In this document: positions 1 through 5,101 of the stretch, one piece after another
Layout of the letters: each line of letters opens with the position of its first letter
Position numbering within the stretch: position 1 is the stretch's first letter
IMG/VR virus record: IMGVR_UViG_2609459833_000010
Span: 1 to 5,101 of that record
From: a virus
Taxonomy: Duplodnaviria > Heunggongvirae > Uroviricota > Caudoviricetes
Direction: 5' to 3' (one strand)
Length of the DNA: 5,101 bases
The notes under the pieces: generated by a model
Database searches by the model: none
Seen by the model: the letters and a program-made list of their open reading frames with translations, nothing else
What the model was told of the DNA's origin: nothing
Program-made: the position numbers and the translations under genes

Positions 1-276
1 CAGGCTAACTGGCCGAATCTTGCCACGTTCTTCGCTTATCCAACGGACATCCGCAAAGTGATCTATACGACGAATGCCATCGAGTCGCTAAACAGCGTGA
101 TCCGCCATGCGATCAAAAAGCGTAAAGTGTTCCCGACAGACGACTCGGTGAAAAAAGTGGTGTGGCTGGCAATCCAGGCGGCTTCACAGAAATGGACGAT
201 GCCACTGCGGGACTGGCGTATGGCAATGAGCCGCTTTATTATCGAGTTCGGTGACCGCCTGGACGGCCACTTCTGA
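1..276 (+). CDS. IS256-family (Mutator-type) transposase, C-terminal fragment; the 5' end lies upstream of the window
   Basis: Frame 1 is open from base 1 to the stop at 274-276. The translation (QANWPNLATFFAYPTDIRKVIYTTNAIESLNSVIRHAIKKRKVFPTDDSVKK...KWTMPLRDWRMAMSRFIIEFGDRLDGHF) carries the C-terminal motifs typical of IS256-family transposases (YTTNxIESLN, KWTMP, F..RL). Recognised from memory, not searched. Confidence 0.8.
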   Translation, partial: QANWPNLATFFAYPTDIRKVIYTTNAIESLNSVIRHAIKKRKVFPTDDSVKKVVWLAIQAASQKWTMPLRDWRMAMSRFIIEFGDRLDGHF

Positions 277-290
277 GAAAAGGTATTTAC
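1..290 (+). mobile_element. Right-hand end of an IS256-family insertion sequence; the exact terminus is not determined
   Basis: Inferred from the transposase 3' end at 1-276. The terminal inverted repeat could not be located from sequence alone. The element must end within a few tens of bp of the stop and may overlap the 3' end of the convergent gene at 287-523. Confidence 0.45.
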
Positions 291-523
291 ACAGAATCCT
301 GAACAGGCTCTCCCCATTGTTTGTTCTTAAGTTCGATCTCCTCCTGGCAACTTGCACAAGTCCGACAACCCTGAACAGCCAGGCGTCTTCGCTCATCTAT
401 CGGATCGCCACACTCACAACAATGAGTTGCGGATACAGTCTGGTAGTTCAGACGACGCATTTTTATTGCTGTATTGCGCTGTAATTCTTCGATTTCTGAT
501 GCTGAATCAATGATGTCTGCCAT
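287..523 (-). CDS. TraR/DksA-family C4 zinc-finger protein (phage TraR-like, of the lambda Orf73 class)
   Basis: 78-aa ORF with an ATG start. It contains C-x2-C-x17-C-x2-C (CCEC...GDPIDERRRLAVQGCRT...CASC), the zinc-finger signature of TraR/DksA proteins, and its size matches F-plasmid TraR (73 aa). Confidence 0.8.
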   Translation of the reverse strand: MADIIDSASEIEELQRNTAIKMRRLNYQTVSATHCCECGDPIDERRRLAVQGCRTCASCQEEIELKNKQWGEPVQDSV

Positions 524-576
524 CTTTCATTAATCCCTGAATTGTTGGTTAATACGCTTGAGGGTAAATGCGAATA

Positions 577-600
577 ATAAAAAAGGAGCCTGTAGCTCCC
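577..600 (-). terminator. Weak candidate intrinsic terminator for the minus strand
   Basis: On the minus strand, a GGAGC / 5-nt loop / GCTCC hairpin (586-600) is followed by TTTTTTATT (577-585), about 20 nt after the stop of the 622-903 ORF. The stem is only 5 bp. Confidence 0.3.
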
Positions 601-621
601 TGATGATTTTGCTTTTCATGT

Positions 622-903
622 TCATCGTTCCTTAAAGACGCCGTTCAACATGCCGATCGCCAGGCTTAAATGAGTCGGTGTGAATCCCATCAGCGTTACC
701 GTTTCGCGGTGCTTCTTTAGTACGCTACGGCAAATGTCATCGACGTTTTTATCCGGAAACTGCTGTCTGGCTTTTTTGATTTCAGAATTAGCCTGACGGG
801 CAATGCTGCGAAGGGCGTTTTCTTGCTGAGGAGTCACTGAACAAGCCCCATGCCGGCAAGCATAAGCACACAGAATATGAAGCCCGCTGCCAGAAAAATG
901 CAT
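622..903 (-). CDS. Hypothetical small phage protein; the real start may be the internal GTG at 835-837, giving 71 aa
   Basis: 93-aa ORF from an ATG. The C-terminal 70 residues look protein-like (SEIKKARQQFPDKNVDDICRSVLKKHRETVTLMGF...), while the N-terminal 22 are Cys/His/Gly-rich and overlap another ORF. A GTG at 835-837 overlaps the stop of the 834-917 ORF. Confidence 0.45.
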   Translation of the reverse strand: MHFSGSGLHILCAYACRHGACSVTPQQENALRSIARQANSEIKKARQQFPDKNVDDICRSVLKKHRETVTLMGFTPTHLSLAIGMLNGVFKER

Positions 904-917
904 TCAGTGGTTGTCAT
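834..917 (-). CDS. Putative 27-aa hydrophobic single-helix peptide (MTTTECIFLAAGFIFCVLMLAGMGLVQ)
   Basis: Not in the supplied ORF track because it is short. Its ATG (915-917) overlaps the TGA stop of the upstream 914-1105 ORF as ATGA, suggesting translational coupling, and a purine-rich GAGAGAG lies 6 nt upstream. The product is almost entirely a transmembrane-like segment. Confidence 0.3.
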   Translation of the reverse strand: MTTTECIFLAAGFIFCVLMLAGMGLVQ

Positions 918-1105
918 ACCTGGTCTCTCTCATCTGCTTCTGCTTTCGCCACCATCATTTCCAGCTTTTGTGAAAGGGATGTGGCTAACGTATGAAATTC
1001 TTCGTCTGTTTCTACTGGTATTGGCACAAACCTGACTCTAATTTGAGCAAGGCTATGTGCCATCTCAATACTCGTTCTTAACTCAACAGGAGATGCTTTG
1101 TGCAT
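914..1105 (-). CDS. Small lambda early-left protein (orf60a/orf63 class), function unknown
   Basis: 63-aa ORF. It sits in the same position relative to exo as the small non-essential ORFs in phage lambda and overlaps the next ORF by 28 nt, as those do. Confidence 0.6.
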   Translation of the reverse strand: MHKASPVELRTSIEMAHSLAQIRVRFVPIPVETDEEFHTLATSLSQKLEMMVAKAEADERDQV

Positions 1106-1266
1106 ACCGCCTCCCGTTTATTATTTATCTTCTCAGCCAGCCGCTGTGCTTTCAGTGGATTTCTGATAACAGAAAGGCCGGGAAATACCCAGCCTCGCTT
1201 TGTAACGGAGTAGACGAAAATGATCGCGCCTACCCGGATATTATCGTGAGGATGCGTCATCGCCAT
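1078..1266 (-). CDS. Small phage protein immediately downstream of exo, function unknown
   Basis: 62-aa ORF ([62 protein letters not shown]). Its start overlaps the exo stop by 10 nt, so it belongs to the same leftward operon. Confidence 0.5.
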
Positions 1267-1937
1267 TGCTCCCCAAATACAAAACCAATTTCAGCCAGTG
1301 CCTCGTCCATTTTTTCGATGAACTCCGGCACCATCTCGTCAAAACTCGCCATGTACTTTTCATTCCGCTCAATCACGACATAATGCAGGCCTTCACGCTT
1401 CATGCGCGGGTCATAGTTGGCAAAGTACCAGGCATCTTTTCGCGTCACCCACATGCTGTACTGCACCTGGGCCATGTAAGCCGATTTTATTGCCTCGAAA
1501 CCACCGAGCCGGAATTTCATGAAATCCCGGGAGGTAAACGGGCATTTCAGTTCAAGGCCGTTGCCGTCACTGCATAAACCATCGGGAGAGCAGGCGGTGC
1601 GCATACTTTCGTCGCGATAGATGATCGGGGATTCAGTAACATTCACGCCGGAAGTGAATTCAAACAGGGTTCTGGCGTCGTTCTCGTACTGTTTTCCCCA
1701 GGCCAGCGCCTTAGCATTAACTTCCGGAGCCACACCGGTGCAAACCTCAGCCAGCAGGGTGTGGAAGTAGGACATTTTCATGTCAGGCCACTTCTTTCCT
1801 GAGCGGGGCTTTGCTATCACGTTGTGAACTTCTGAAGCGGTGATGACGCCGAGCCGTAATTTGTGCCATGCATCATCCCCCTGTTCGACAGCTCTCACGT
1901 CGATCCCGGTACGCTGCAGGATAATGTCCGGTGTCAT
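1257..1937 (-). CDS. exo: Lambda exonuclease (Red alpha), 5'-3' dsDNA exonuclease
   Basis: 226 aa, the length of lambda Exo. The sequence ([43 protein letters not shown]...) is recognised as essentially lambda Exo. Its start overlaps the bet stop by 4 nt, as in lambda. Confidence 0.96.
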
Positions 1938-2719
1938 GCTGCCTCCTTCTGCTCAGTGGCTTTCTGTTTCAGGAATCCAAGAGCTTTCACTGCTTCGGCC
2001 TGTGTCAGTTCTGACGATGCGCGAATGTCGCGGCGAAATATCTGGGAACAGAGCGGCAATAAGTCGTCATCCCATGTTTTATCCAGGGCGATCAGCAGAG
2101 TGTTAATCTCCTGCATGGTTTCATCGTTAACCGGAGTGATGTCGCGTTCCGGCTGACGTTCTGCAGTGTTAGCAGTATTTTCGACAATGCGCTCGGCTTC
2201 ATCCTTGTCATAGATACCAGCAAATCCGAAGGCCAGACGGGCACACTGAATCATGGCTTTATGCCGTAACATCCGTTTGGGATGCGACTGCCACGGTCCG
2301 GTGATTTCTCTGCCTTCGCGGGTTTTGAATGGTTCGCGGCGGCATTCATCCATCCACTCGGTAACGCAGATCGGATGATTACGGTCCTTGCGGTAAATCC
2401 GGCATGTACAGGATTCATTGTCCTGCTCAAAGTCCATGCCATCAAACTGCTGGTTTTCATTGATGATGCGGGACCAGCCATCAACGCCCACCACCGGAAC
2501 GATGCCGTTCTGCTTATCAGGGAAGGCGTAAATTTCTTTCGTCCACGGATTAAGGCCGTACTGGTTGGCGACGATCAACAATGCGATGAACTGCGCATCG
2601 CTGGCATCACCTTTAAATGCCGTCTGGCGAAGAGTGGTGATCAGTTCCTGTGGGTCGACAGAATCCATGCCGACACGTTCAGCCAGCTTCCCAGCCAGCG
2701 TTGCGAGTGCTGTACTCAT
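1934..2719 (-). CDS. bet: Lambda Beta (Red beta) single-strand annealing protein
   Basis: 261 aa, the length of lambda Bet. The sequence ([66 protein letters not shown]...) is recognised as essentially lambda Bet. A GAGG Shine-Dalgarno lies about 10 nt upstream. Confidence 0.96.
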
Positions 2720-2724
2720 CCGTT

Positions 2725-3021
2725 TTATACCTCTGAATCAATATCAACCTGATGGTGAGCAATGGTTTCAACCATGTACCGGATGTGTTCTGCCATGCGC
2801 TCCTGAAACTCAACATCGTCATCAAATGCACGGGTAATGGCTTTTTTGCTGGCCCCGTGGCGTTGCAAATGATCGATGCAGAGTGATTCAAACAGGTGCT
2901 GTGGAAGACCTTTTTCCATGTCGTCTGCCAGTTCTGCCTCTTTCTCTTCACGGGCAATCTGCTGGTAGTGACGCGCCCAGCTCTGAGCCTCAAGACGATC
3001 CTGAATGTAATAAGCGTTCAT
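2725..3021 (-). CDS. gam: Host-nuclease (RecBCD) inhibitor Gam, short form
   Basis: 98-aa ORF ([60 protein letters not shown]...[10 protein letters not shown]) recognised as lambda GamS. An AGGAG Shine-Dalgarno lies 7 nt upstream of the ATG. An in-frame stop at 3076-3078 with no start codon in between rules out the longer lambda-type form here. Confidence 0.94.
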
Positions 3022-3096
3022 GGCTGAACTCCTGAAAATGGCTGTGAAAATATCGCCCGCGAAATGCCAGGCTGATTAGGAAAACAGGAAAGGGGA

Positions 3097-3507
3097 TTAG
3101 TGATTCAGGCCGTTGCCTCGTCCGTCGAGAAAAACTTCCACGAGCAAATCACGGGTATAAGTGCGCTCGATGCCGCGATGCAGATATAGCCGTCCGCGTA
3201 AATTAGCTGATGCTGTCCAGGTACCATCTTTGTGTTTGACCAGCATTCCTGGCATGACCGCACCGCGATTAACGGTCTGCGTTCCGTAATGTTGATGAAC
3301 CATAAAAACTCCTGCCCGTAAGCTGGGCTGCTGAACATATAAAGACTTCTGCGCGTATTCAGGCGGTGGATGGCCGCCGGTTGTCATAACTAAGCCGCCT
3401 CGTTGAAGCGACTGAGGTATGAAATGTTGAGTTAATTTCAGCTGGTCACACCGACGTTCACGCGTCCGCTTCACCCCTCGCACTTCCCGGAGCCTGCTGA
3501 AATTCAA
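3097..3507 (-). CDS. Hypothetical Arg-rich protein or gene remnant; no ATG at the head of the ORF
   Basis: 136-codon open frame, and the plus strand here is closed in all frames. The frame opens right after a stop at 3517-3519 and its first start-like codon is TTG. The first ATG is codon 41, preceded by GAGG about 10 nt upstream, which would give 96 aa. No family recognised. Confidence 0.3.
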   Translation of the reverse strand: MNFSRLREVRGVKRTRERRCDQLKLTQHFIPQSLQRGGLVMTTGGHPPPEYAQKSLYVQQPSLRAGVFMVHQHYGTQTVNRGAVMPGMLVKHKDGTWTASANLRGRLYLHRGIERTYTRDLLVEVFLDGRGNGLNH

Positions 3508-3588
3508 GCTACGGATCTAAGCGGTCATCGCAACGGTGAATCAGGTGGTTGCCGTATCGTTGTGTTGTTGCGATATGATGATAATAGC

Positions 3589-3625
3589 TATTGCTATTGG
3601 TGATATCAATACTTATTGCTATTGG
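3589..3625. repeat. Two perfect copies of a 12-bp direct repeat, TATTGCTATTGG, 25 bp apart in AT-rich intergenic DNA
   Basis: Read directly: 3589-3600 and 3614-3625. Each copy is itself a GCTATT-type tandem, and both lie in the AT-rich spacer between the terminator at 3747-3774 and the ORF at 3097-3507. Confidence 0.5.
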
Positions 3626-3746
3626 CTGATGTGTTTTGATATTAAATGTTTGATAGCAAAAAGAATTAATTTTGTGACTTGCATCGCATAGCGATAACTG
3701 AAGCAGGGGCATGGTGGTTTTTTGAACGGTGTGTGATGAGGGGAGG

Positions 3747-3774
3747 CAAAAGAAAACCCGGCACGACGGCCGGG
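3747..3774 (-). terminator. Intrinsic (rho-independent) terminator downstream of the membrane-protein gene
   Basis: On the minus strand, a GC-rich hairpin CCCGGC-cgtcgt-GCCGGG (3757-3774) is followed by TTTTCTTTTG (3747-3756), starting 9 nt after the TGA stop at 3783-3785. Confidence 0.55.
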
Positions 3775-3782
3775 GAGGGGGG

Positions 3783-4289
3783 TCATTTTAATCTATCAAG
3801 GAGTGACTCTCTTTCCTTCTTCTCTGATTCTCTTCGGTTTAATAACGCTTTAAACTCTTGAAGCTCAACCATTATTTTATGAACGAATACACTGGTATAG
3901 AGAGAAATAAAGAGTAATCCACCTGAAATTTTTAAGACCCTGAAGAGTAGGGCTTGATCATTTGTGCTTGCTATTAACCCCAAGATTACAAACAAAGTTG
4001 AAAATACATAGAAAGCTAATAATAAAACCAATTTCAGTCTCTTGGATTTGACTATTGGCACTAATCGCCTAACCTCACTAGGGGTTAAAGACGAGTGGTC
4101 ATTGGCCTCATTTGCCTTAAAAATGGCTTGTATACAATATGATAATGGCAATTGCATGAGTCCAACCACAGCCCACGGAGCTGTTAGGACAACACCCGGT
4201 GTAATATAGCCCAATGCTGACTTGAACAAAAAGTAACCAGCAACATAGAAGACCAACATACCAATAAGGTGGATGATGTTCGATTTCAT
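3783..4289 (-). CDS. Predicted integral membrane protein (about 4 transmembrane helices, charged C-terminal tail), function unknown
   Basis: 168-aa ORF with an ATG start and a canonical AGGAGG Shine-Dalgarno 5 nt upstream. Hydrophobic stretches sit at about residues 5-22, 30-57, 85-107 and 112-136, followed by a Lys/Glu/Arg-rich tail (LQEFKALLNRRESEKKERESLLDRLK). The gene is AT-rich and starts 21 nt after the upstream gene's stop. Confidence 0.75.
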   Translation of the reverse strand: MKSNIIHLIGMLVFYVAGYFLFKSALGYITPGVVLTAPWAVVGLMQLPLSYCIQAIFKANEANDHSSLTPSEVRRLVPIVKSKRLKLVLLLAFYVFSTLFVILGLIASTNDQALLFRVLKISGGLLFISLYTSVFVHKIMVELQEFKALLNRRESEKKERESLLDRLK

Positions 4290-4310
4290 TATCGCCCTCC
4301 TTTTGGTAGG

Positions 4311-4781
4311 TTATTTTGCAACCAATTCTCCGGCATCAAGTTTTGAGAACAGCCACTTATGCATTTTTAAGAATAAATCATTTTCATCAATAATGCCATT
4401 GTTATGTTCAACGCTAATTTTTCCGGATAATTTTATCTCTTTTCCCGTTATTTCCCCACCGCCTTGAAGTTTGATGCTAATATCATCCTCATCTAGATGT
4501 CGTAGTGAGGTAGCAATACTGTCTATAACAGCTTGACCGCTATCATTTGTTTTTCTGAAGTATGTAATCTCGAGGCTTACTTGTAAATTGGCCTCATCTA
4601 ATGAATCTTTAATGTTTATATCATTTGCCCAGTTATCGCCAAAAAATGCTTTTAGTAGCGCACCTCCTTTCCCTATTGGGCGGTATTTTATTGTCTTCAC
4701 CGAACCATTTGAAAAGGAGGGTGTTTGGTTCTCTGAATTTTTAACTTCTGAAGTAATGGGTAATCTGATCTTACCCAGCAA
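4311..4781 (-). CDS. Hypothetical soluble protein, first gene of the two-gene cassette; 5' end apparently truncated by the IS3 insertion
   Basis: 156-codon frame ending in TAA at 4311-4313. The head of the frame (4766-4781) is IS3 inverted-repeat sequence and the first start-like codon is a TTG inside IS3. The native portion (4765 and below) has no ATG until near the C-terminus, and its only GTG (codon 28) has no Shine-Dalgarno. No family recognised. Confidence 0.55.
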   Translation of the reverse strand: MLGKIRLPITSEVKNSENQTPSFSNGSVKTIKYRPIGKGGALLKAFFGDNWANDINIKDSLDEANLQVSLEITYFRKTNDSGQAVIDSIATSLRHLDEDDISIKLQGGGEITGKEIKLSGKISVEHNNGIIDENDLFLKMHKWLFSKLDAGELVAK

Positions 4782-5101
4782 TAGTGGACACGCGGCTAAG
4801 TGAGTAAACTCTCAGTCAGAGGTGACTCACATGACAAAAACAGTATCAACCAGTAAAAAACCCCGTAAACAGCATTCGCCTGAATTTCGCAGTGAAGCCC
4901 TGAAGCTTGCTGAACGCATCGGTGTTACTGCCGCAGCCCGTGAACTCAGCCTGTATGAATCACAACTCTACAACTGGCGCAGTAAACAGCAAAATCAGCA
5001 GACGTCTTCTGAACGTGAACTGGAGATGTCTACCGAGATTGCACGTCTCAAACGCCAGCTGGCAGAACGGGATGAAGAGCTGGCTATCCTCCAAAAGGCC
5101 G
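4766..5101 (+). mobile_element. IS3 (IS3 family), left end and start of orfA; continues beyond the window
   Basis: The left inverted repeat begins at 4766 (TGATCTTACCCAGCAATAGTGGACACGCGGCTAAGTGAG...), followed by the orfA start at 4831. Recognised as the E. coli IS3 left end. Confidence 0.93.
4831..5101 (+). CDS. insE: IS3 OrfA (transposase N-terminal helix-turn-helix / leucine-zipper protein), 3' end outside the window
   Basis: Translation from the ATG at 4831 (MTKTVSTSKKPRKQHSPEFRSEALKLAERIGVTAAARELSLYESQLYNWRSKQQNQQTSSERELEMSTEIARLKRQLAERDEELAILQKA) is recognised as IS3 OrfA (InsE). It is absent from the ORF track only because no stop falls inside the window. Confidence 0.93.
   Translation, partial: MTKTVSTSKKPRKQHSPEFRSEALKLAERIGVTAAARELSLYESQLYNWRSKQQNQQTSSERELEMSTEIARLKRQLAERDEELAILQKA

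Follow-up and report, generated by a model that had tools for sequence, protein, structure and literature searches.

An AT-rich stretch in a degraded lambda-like prophage joins conserved immunity-region DNA to a truncated exchangeable cassette with a candidate RexAB-type gene pair

In a 5,101-nucleotide stretch of viral DNA (Duplodnaviria; Heunggongvirae; Uroviricota; Caudoviricetes; IMG/VR record IMGVR_UViG_2609459833_000010, positions 1 to 5,101; hereafter the window), base composition shifts abruptly to the right of the lambda-like recombination genes and stays rich in adenine and thymine (AT) up to an IS3 insertion sequence. What is this AT-rich stretch (3508-4765), and does its composition record a recent acquisition? 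The window is a degraded lambda-like prophage, and the AT-rich stretch is the left end of its immunity region. It is made up of two things: conserved backbone DNA (3508-3774) and part of an exchangeable cassette (3775-4765), which in intact form carries a gene for a 340-amino-acid (aa) protein and a gene for a 168-aa membrane protein. Judged by analogy, this pair is probably a RexAB-type abortive-infection system, inactivated in the window by IS3.

The guanine-plus-cytosine (GC) content of 3508-4765 is 39.0%, compared with 50.2% in 344-3507 (chi-square 45.4, p 1.6e-11). In a sliding-window analysis, GC stays at ~0.50-0.55 until ~3500 and then lies at 0.35-0.45 as far as ~4800. The original prediction, made by eye, that this stretch is more AT-rich than the lambda-like DNA at its left therefore agrees with the computed values, and the sliding-window check that it had proposed shows a significant difference from the left flank. 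Its estimate of a GC content in the mid-30s was slightly low, as the coding part lies at 36-38% and 3508-3774 at 43%. The drop had been placed at ~3510; instead, the best single GC change point is at 3555-3573, so that the onset lies ~60 base pairs (bp) further right, and 3508-3574 is still at 52% GC, followed by 35.7% in 3575-3756, the promoter/operator tract. The lowest GC of any 991-bp window within 344-3507 is 0.456, whereas the 991 bp of 3775-4765 are at 0.377. GC at third codon positions is 0.30-0.39 in the two cassette genes, compared with 0.49-0.62 in exo, bet, gam and kil.

By window position and strand, the features of the AT-rich stretch and of the element that adjoins it are as follows; ORF denotes an open reading frame.

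3508-3782: non-coding gap
3508-3574, minus: putative 5' leader of the pL (leftward early) transcript, between the predicted -10 hexamer and kil; 52% GC
3581-3609, minus: candidate pL promoter, with -35 hexamer TTGATA at 3609-3604, a 17-bp spacer and -10 hexamer TATTAT at 3586-3581
3583-3598 and 3608-3623: putative oL operators, two 16-bp palindromes (AATAGCTATTGCTATT and AATACTTATTGCTATT, respectively), 25 bp apart
3747-3774, minus: intrinsic terminator ending the cI-cassette operon, with stem CCCGGC/GCCGGG at 3774-3757 and then TTTTCTTTT
3775-4765, minus: retained part of the exchangeable cassette, 991 of 1681 bp (59%); GC 0.377
3783-4289, minus: gene for the 168-aa membrane protein, an intact ORF
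4311-4765, minus: 3' fragment of the gene for the 340-aa protein, 150 codons of an ORF that runs into IS3
4766-5101, plus: left end of IS3, with its terminal inverted repeat and the beginning of the first transposase ORF

A sequence search with 3508-4765 as the query, of the kind that the original prediction had suggested, told apart genomes that carry the full stretch from those that carry only its first ~267 bases. The 267 bp of 3508-3774 were found in 2022 of 5426 complete Escherichia coli genomes, whereas the cassette was found in only 42 of the 5426 (counted as genomes carrying at least 80% of the query). Perceval, a prophage of strain LF82, is the one record of the phage collection with a longer match; in all others, the match is confined to roughly the first 267 bases. 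Over the full 1258 bases, the query has 98.4% identity to Perceval and 100% identity to E. coli CB6837. Conservation at this position in related lambdoid phages had been named as the result that would speak against a separately acquired segment; such conservation holds for 3508-3774, but the cassette itself is rare.

In intact relatives, the leftward gene order is cI, the 340-aa gene, the 168-aa gene, the non-coding region, kil, gam, bet and exo, and a cassette of 1681 bp, on the cI strand, exactly fills the gap between the terminator and the cI stop codon. When phages 4C10 and PhiR30_1 are compared with the intact locus, the left flank is ~97% identical up to the equivalent of window position 3774/3777, and the right flank is ~97% identical from exactly the cI stop codon of the intact relative (L002); between these flanks, the content of 4C10 and PhiR30_1 is unrelated to the cassette. 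In an alignment of five phages, similarity stops at the outer base of the hairpin at 3757-3774. Four different occupants of the slot were identified in backbones that are ~97% identical: the present cassette, PDC-M11, PDC-M63 and a lone lipoprotein gene. Conserved flanks, alternative content and a patchy distribution characterize the cassette as a horizontally exchanged module, and the exchange probably proceeds via recombination in the conserved flanks.

Loci with other cargo in the slot are L013 (3772-5188), L014 (3780-5134), L050 (2777-4205) and L051 (2776-3156). Among the other occupants, PDC-M11 is a PADLOC candidate system with an ASCH-domain partner, annotated as GevT/GevA in PhiR47_2, and PDC-M63 is a PADLOC candidate system consisting of DUF6932 and a 310-aa protein. 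In intact copies of the present cassette, 122 bp separate the cI stop codon from the start of the RexA-like gene, and this gap contains a 44-bp near-perfect palindrome (L002, 7877-7920), with 22-nucleotide arms that are 86% complementary and no spacer. Based on its sequence, this palindrome may form a hairpin with a regulatory role or be bound by a protein.

Does the low GC date the arrival of this DNA? If the whole of 3508-4765 were one block recently imported from a low-GC donor, the gap between 0.39 and 0.50 would record that event, and both the rarity of the cassette in E. coli (42 of 5426 genomes) and the spread of its closest homologues over many genera would be in keeping with it. We consider such an import unlikely. 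The first 267 bp are conserved backbone, present in 2022 genomes. Cassette GC is below that of the flanks in 34 of 34 loci, by a mean of 9.9 points, with flank GC between 35% and 64% depending on the host; cassette GC spans 0.33-0.58 and follows the host, which points to long residence and a persistent bias. The other slot cassettes are likewise AT-rich (35-39% GC), as are lambda rexA (40%) and rexB (42.5%) compared with lambda exo-bet-gam (51%). No direct repeats bounding the cassette were found in the intact copy and no mobility genes of its own were found at its bounds, IS3 being a later insertion inside a gene; phage-phage exchange at conserved flanks is the simpler explanation. Whatever the host, low GC is a lasting feature of this class of cassette and does not indicate recent import. 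Because it recurs in all loci, in the other cassettes and in rexAB, and because bounding repeats are lacking, the shift marks exchangeable lysogeny-associated cargo. What stands of the proposal that the segment was separately acquired is thus a swappable unit, to which 3508-3774 does not belong, and low GC is poor evidence that its import was recent. The cassette had also been described as lying beyond the recognizable phage genes; it occupies the position of lambda rexAB and is typical phage cargo.

The right end of the AT-rich stretch had been placed exactly at the IS3 terminus, and the first base of IS3 is indeed 4766. The sequence TGATCTTACCCAGC... begins there, and the same 30-mer directly precedes an annotated IS3 transposase in E. 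coli T309.Ta3 (L046). This terminus is not where the segment ends, however: the element cuts through the upstream gene, and intact copies have a further 690 bp of cassette and then cI beyond this point. The insertion point is equivalent to L002 7258/7259 and splits the 340-aa gene after codon 190, leaving residues 191-340. We therefore rejected IS3 as the boundary of an acquired segment. Because IS3 splits the predicted sensor gene, the system in the window is very probably inactive, with only the membrane-protein gene intact.

Two independent IS3 insertions were identified in the RexA-like gene, in different strains: one at window position 4766 and one in T309.Ta3 at L046 8580. They have the same orientation and are 158 bp apart. 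The T309.Ta3 insertion is simple, with the remaining gene and cI on its far side. Carrying the gene may be costly, or IS3 may prefer AT-rich targets; either could account for this double occurrence.

What would the intact cassette do? We scanned one genome per species and identified 31 loci that encode a relative of the 340-aa protein. A gene for the membrane partner directly follows on the same strand in 28 of these; of the other three loci, one is cut off by the end of its contig, one has a disrupted gene, and only one, a distant Cytophagales locus, lacks the partner. A cI-type repressor gene lies directly upstream on the same strand in ~8 of the 31 species loci. The layout downstream of a repressor is also found in Pseudomonas sp. 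273, Methylobacter and an Acinetobacter phage, and placement in a repressor operon also applies to the E. coli, Perceval, Morganella and Marinobacter loci; it is not universal. Other copies lie between the gene for the Q antiterminator and the lysis/stx2 genes, in a Klebsiella aerogenes prophage, in Stx2a-converting phages and in Shigella SfIV, and the Aeromonas copy follows the primase gene of a P4-like satellite. Conservation of the pair extends across Gammaproteobacteria and covers prophages as well as a P4-like satellite. Lambdoid prophages have a documented mosaic hotspot with defence cargo between cI and N (PMC8585504, citing Degnan 2007), and P4-like satellites are hotspots of antiviral systems (PMC9122126). 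The presence of copies at known accessory-gene or defence hotspots (the Q-lysis/stx region and the P4-like satellite) is context that supports a defence function.

Relatives of the pair lie at 2492-4055 of L048 (Stx2a_1447) and at 2405-3827 of L049 (SfIV); in SfIV, the membrane-partner gene is shortened and adjoins a transposase gene. In Acinetobacter phage phi1_092021 (L047, 2483-3990), a homologue with 32% identity to the 340-aa protein is encoded downstream of the repressor, together with a 167-aa partner. The depositors labelled this homologue "DefenseFinder protein," which speaks for a defence function, although the label leaves the system unnamed.

Relatives of the 340-aa protein fall into 129 clusters at 90% identity, mostly from Gammaproteobacteria, with no Vibrio or Salmonella members among the named homologues; a profile search (E up to 0.001) gave 794 clusters at 50% identity. 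AlphaFold2, run on a 72-sequence alignment, produced a model with a predicted local distance difference test score (pLDDT) of 69 and a predicted template modelling score (pTM) of 0.67. The model shows the arrangement of the RexA/RdgC class, in which a split globular beta-sheet domain holds an inserted dimerisation domain, and the predicted fold of this soluble protein is closest to that of lambda RexA. In a Foldseek search of the model against viral models, the best match was a protein of "Siphoviridae sp. ctylc9" (E 1.6e-12).

AlphaFold2 predicted the 168-aa protein as four long helices (pLDDT 85), the last of which runs into a charged tail. Hydropathy and charge distribution are likewise in keeping with a protein that crosses the membrane four times and has a positively charged loop at its centre. 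In the family alignment, the motif E72-x-R74-R75 within the central cytoplasmic loop is invariant across distant partners. It is comparable to the central cytoplasmic loop of gp31, a Rex-like membrane protein of phage Sbash, in which defence is lost upon the substitutions R70A and D73A (PMC6426596). In a Foldseek search against viral models, the second match was a 165-aa Sbash protein (probability 0.97, TM-score 0.47, E 0.12), and a further match was a 172-aa protein of ctylc9, the same virus that gave the best match to the 340-aa model. Based on these predictions, the 168-aa protein is a candidate RexB-like effector.

We then have both parts of a RexAB-type layout: a gene whose product is predicted to have the RexA fold, with a four-helix partner, and placement in the repressor operon ahead of the terminator. 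By analogy with lambda RexAB, Pseudomonas putida RexABpp and the actinophage systems, the pair would be co-transcribed with cI in the lysogen, as the layout suggests. The RexA-like protein would sense an infecting phage, probably via DNA or a protein-DNA intermediate, and would activate the membrane partner through the conserved cytoplasmic loop of the latter. The membrane would then be depolarised or damaged, and infection would be aborted by growth arrest or death.

Sequence comparison places the pair outside the RexA and RexB families. BLASTP of both cassette proteins against lambda RexA and RexB returned nothing, and a scan of NCBIfam gave no family for either. In PHROGs, both belong only to families of unknown function (phrog_16807 for the 168-aa protein). 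The 168-aa protein has no match in Pfam or PADLOC, whereas lambda RexB is matched at 8.5e-92. A search with hidden Markov models (HMMs) of the family against PDB sequences gave chance matches only. The Foldseek matches of the 340-aa model among viral models were uncharacterised proteins only, lambda RexA not being among them, and a literature search by protein accessions and PHROG numbers found no papers. Because the sequence tests are negative, the link to RexAB rests on fold, gene pairing and position.

Several points weigh against the RexAB-type assignment. The 340-aa model is only of moderate quality, with residues 191-254 below pLDDT 50. The intact 340-aa protein has no Pfam or PADLOC match at E up to 1; as a positive control, the same libraries match lambda RexA at 1e-97 and 9e-110. 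Using hhalign against a 25-sequence RexA profile, we obtained probabilities of 0.06% for the 72-sequence profile and 0.8% for a 131-sequence profile; the second, weak match is co-linear in the dimerisation domain and is not significant. The Sbash match to the 168-aa model is non-significant by its E-value of 0.12, and the identity of that protein with gp31 is not confirmed. Four-helix membrane proteins are common. Co-transcription with cI would follow from the layout only, and the function of the family is a predicted one. A promoter scan was overall not above chance (5 found versus 4.1 expected), so the assignment of pL rests on operator overlap.

Some of these points would also fit a different account, in which the membrane protein acts in superinfection exclusion, either blocking the entry of DNA or altering the envelope, and the likeness of its partner to RexA is an artefact of modelling. 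Small membrane proteins with such roles are common in prophages, the AlphaFold2 model is moderate, and sequence homology to RexA was not found; even so, we regard this account as very improbable. The genomic context bears on another alternative, namely that the pair serves the prophage itself, by biasing the switch between lysogeny and lytic growth or as an addiction or toxin-antitoxin-like module, and does not act against other phages. The pair adjoins cI in several hosts, and a fitness cost could lie behind the interruption of the sensor gene by IS3 on two independent occasions. Lambda RexA biases the lysogeny-lytic switch independently of RexB, and a role of this kind is on record for lambda RexA/RexB (bioRxiv 10.1101/2021.04.19.439022; PMC11077077). 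Against this, copies also lie far from repressors, in the Q-lysis/stx region and in a P4-like satellite without a lambda-type switch, so that portable cargo fits better than a switch component; moreover, a defence role would be compatible with service to the prophage. We judge an exclusively prophage-serving function to be quite unlikely, and a RexAB-type abortive-infection system remains our preferred reading of the cassette.

The backbone portion of the AT-rich stretch has a separate identity. Region 3575-3774 is conserved regulatory DNA, with cI-type operators over a leftward promoter and the terminator of the repressor operon upstream of them. The terminator (minus strand, CCCGGC-CGTCGT-GCCGGG and then TTTTCTTTT) begins 8 nucleotides past the stop codon of the 168-aa gene; it was matched in a terminator scan and has an RNA folding energy of -12.1 kcal/mol. 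Its stem is kept in the five aligned phages, whose sequences diverge immediately at its right, and its placement is like that of the terminator after rexB in lambda. The motif AATASN6STATT matches the window only at the two oL sites. In the intact relative L002, it occurs at the equivalent oL positions and a further three to four times between cI and cro, with 25-bp spacing; L002 has 9 matches in total versus 1.5 expected, and 0 of 200 shuffles reached 9. The 25-bp operator tandem was also found as repeat D1. From their sequence, the 16-bp palindromes read as putative operators of the phage's own repressor. The candidate pL is the best promoter-like match in 3000-4800 (10 of 12 positions), and both of its hexamers overlap the 16-bp operators, an arrangement shared with pL of lambda. 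No Rfam family was matched in 3300-4800, so no known RNA element was found in the leader.

To the left of the AT-rich stretch, the window encodes recombination genes and a kil-type gene. Together with the 168-aa ORF and the ORF from 4311 onwards, all of these lie on the minus strand.

1257-1937, minus: exo
1934-2719, minus: bet
2725-3021, minus: gam (Pfam Gam, 3e-65)
3097-3507, minus: kil-type cell-division inhibitor, with a 68-aa core at 3097-3303 and a frame that is open up to TTG at 3507

The kil-type product matches phrog_294 (Kil; E 2e-38) over residues 60-136. In RefSeq, the 68-aa protein is annotated as "phage encoded cell division inhibitor," and in phage Perceval it is annotated as "phi80 Kil homolog." This gene is the left neighbour of the AT-rich unit and lies outside it. 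The frame upstream of the Kil core (3304-3507, minus strand) codes for an arginine-rich stretch, RGVKRTRERRCDQLK, which resembles the RNA-binding motif of N-type antiterminators; no N gene is present between pL and kil in this phage group. In PhiR30_1, the equivalent of 3304-3507 forms an ORF of its own, with 68 aa. Sequences available for comparison are too alike to judge whether 3304-3507 is coding. At the other end of the window, 58-276 (plus strand) encodes a C-terminal fragment of a Mutator/IS256-family transposase (PF00872, 3e-8), which replaces the integrase/excisionase side of the prophage, with a junction near 311-343. As insertion-sequence DNA is present at both sides of the window, the prophage is bounded by such DNA. 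The genome from which the window derives is absent from the complete RefSeq E. coli set, whose best matches lack either IS3 or the insertion-sequence fragment at the left.

The compositional shift is in itself ordinary, as it reflects a known variable slot beside the prophage repressor and is expected in lambda-like prophages. The slot is known; the gene-pair family is unannotated. With its limits exactly defined as the cI stop codon and the conserved terminator, the slot could serve to collect candidate defence cassettes from thousands of E. coli prophages. The family has no Pfam, NCBIfam or PADLOC model and, as given above, comprises 794 clusters at 50% identity. Tentatively, and with some doubt, the pair could represent a large uncurated family of RexAB-type defence systems, distinct from lambda RexAB, RexABpp and Sucellos (the latter two compared by description). 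If so, medically relevant prophages would carry the family, including Perceval in LF82, Stx2a-converting phages and Shigella SfIV. Since fold and partner are kept, a comparison of RexA with such a diverged family could show which features of RexA-RexB are essential. The mechanism of RexA-RexB has been an open question for ~70 years. If the pair is functional, its many natural variants would allow study of how RexA-type sensors trigger their membrane partners. In the source strain itself, no phenotype is likely, because IS3 breaks the system.

How does the pair compare with known systems? As in lambda RexA-RexB (PF15969, PF15968; PDB 8TWQ), the first gene encodes a soluble protein and the second, a small four-helix membrane protein. 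Both pairs lie directly downstream of cI on the same strand and are followed by a terminator and then oL/pL; the gap between cI and the first gene is 122 bp here and ~110 bp in lambda, and both pairs are AT-rich relative to the recombination genes. In contrast to this shared layout, sequence similarity between the two was undetected by BLASTP, HMM and profile-profile comparison. The proteins also differ in length: lambda RexA has 279 aa, versus 340 aa here with a low-confidence insertion at ~191-254, and lambda RexB has 144 aa, versus 168 aa here with a long charged C-terminal helix.

The slot resembles the cI-to-N/pL hotspot, the site of BstA and rexAB, in being a variable position downstream of the repressor that holds lysogeny-expressed defence cargo. 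Unlike that hotspot, the slot described here is bounded exactly by the cI stop codon and the conserved terminator, and phages of this group lack an N gene to the left of pL.

Other pairs, classed as Rex-type by fold and layout and not by close sequence similarity, are RexABpp of P. putida (PP_5643/PP_5644; PMC12894663), Sbash gp30/gp31 and CarolAnn gp44/gp43. We compared RexABpp and Sbash gp30 by published description, not by sequence. RexABpp and the actinophage pairs (PMC6426596; PMC11077077) are likewise prophage-borne and often lie near a repressor, and they likewise have a four-helix membrane partner with a functionally important central cytoplasmic loop. They have demonstrated defence phenotypes, whereas the present pair is known from genes and models. 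RexApp is detected by HHpred against RexA, whereas the profiles built here gave no such detection for the 340-aa family. Only five Rex-like systems were counted in the 2026 P. putida paper.

Sucellos (SclA/SclB), from the chromosomal integron of Vibrio cholerae, is structurally RexAB-like and unmatched by Pfam models; both genes are needed, it acts by abortive infection, and outside Vibrio it is mostly prophage-borne (bioRxiv 10.1101/2024.07.02.601686). According to later preprints, Sucellos is now found by defence-annotation tools. The "DefenseFinder protein" label on the Acinetobacter phage homologue is compatible with Sucellos, although it names no system. Compared by description only, the pair may be the same system as Sucellos or a sister family; it shares with Sucellos a structural resemblance to RexAB, the lack of a Pfam match and an association with prophages.

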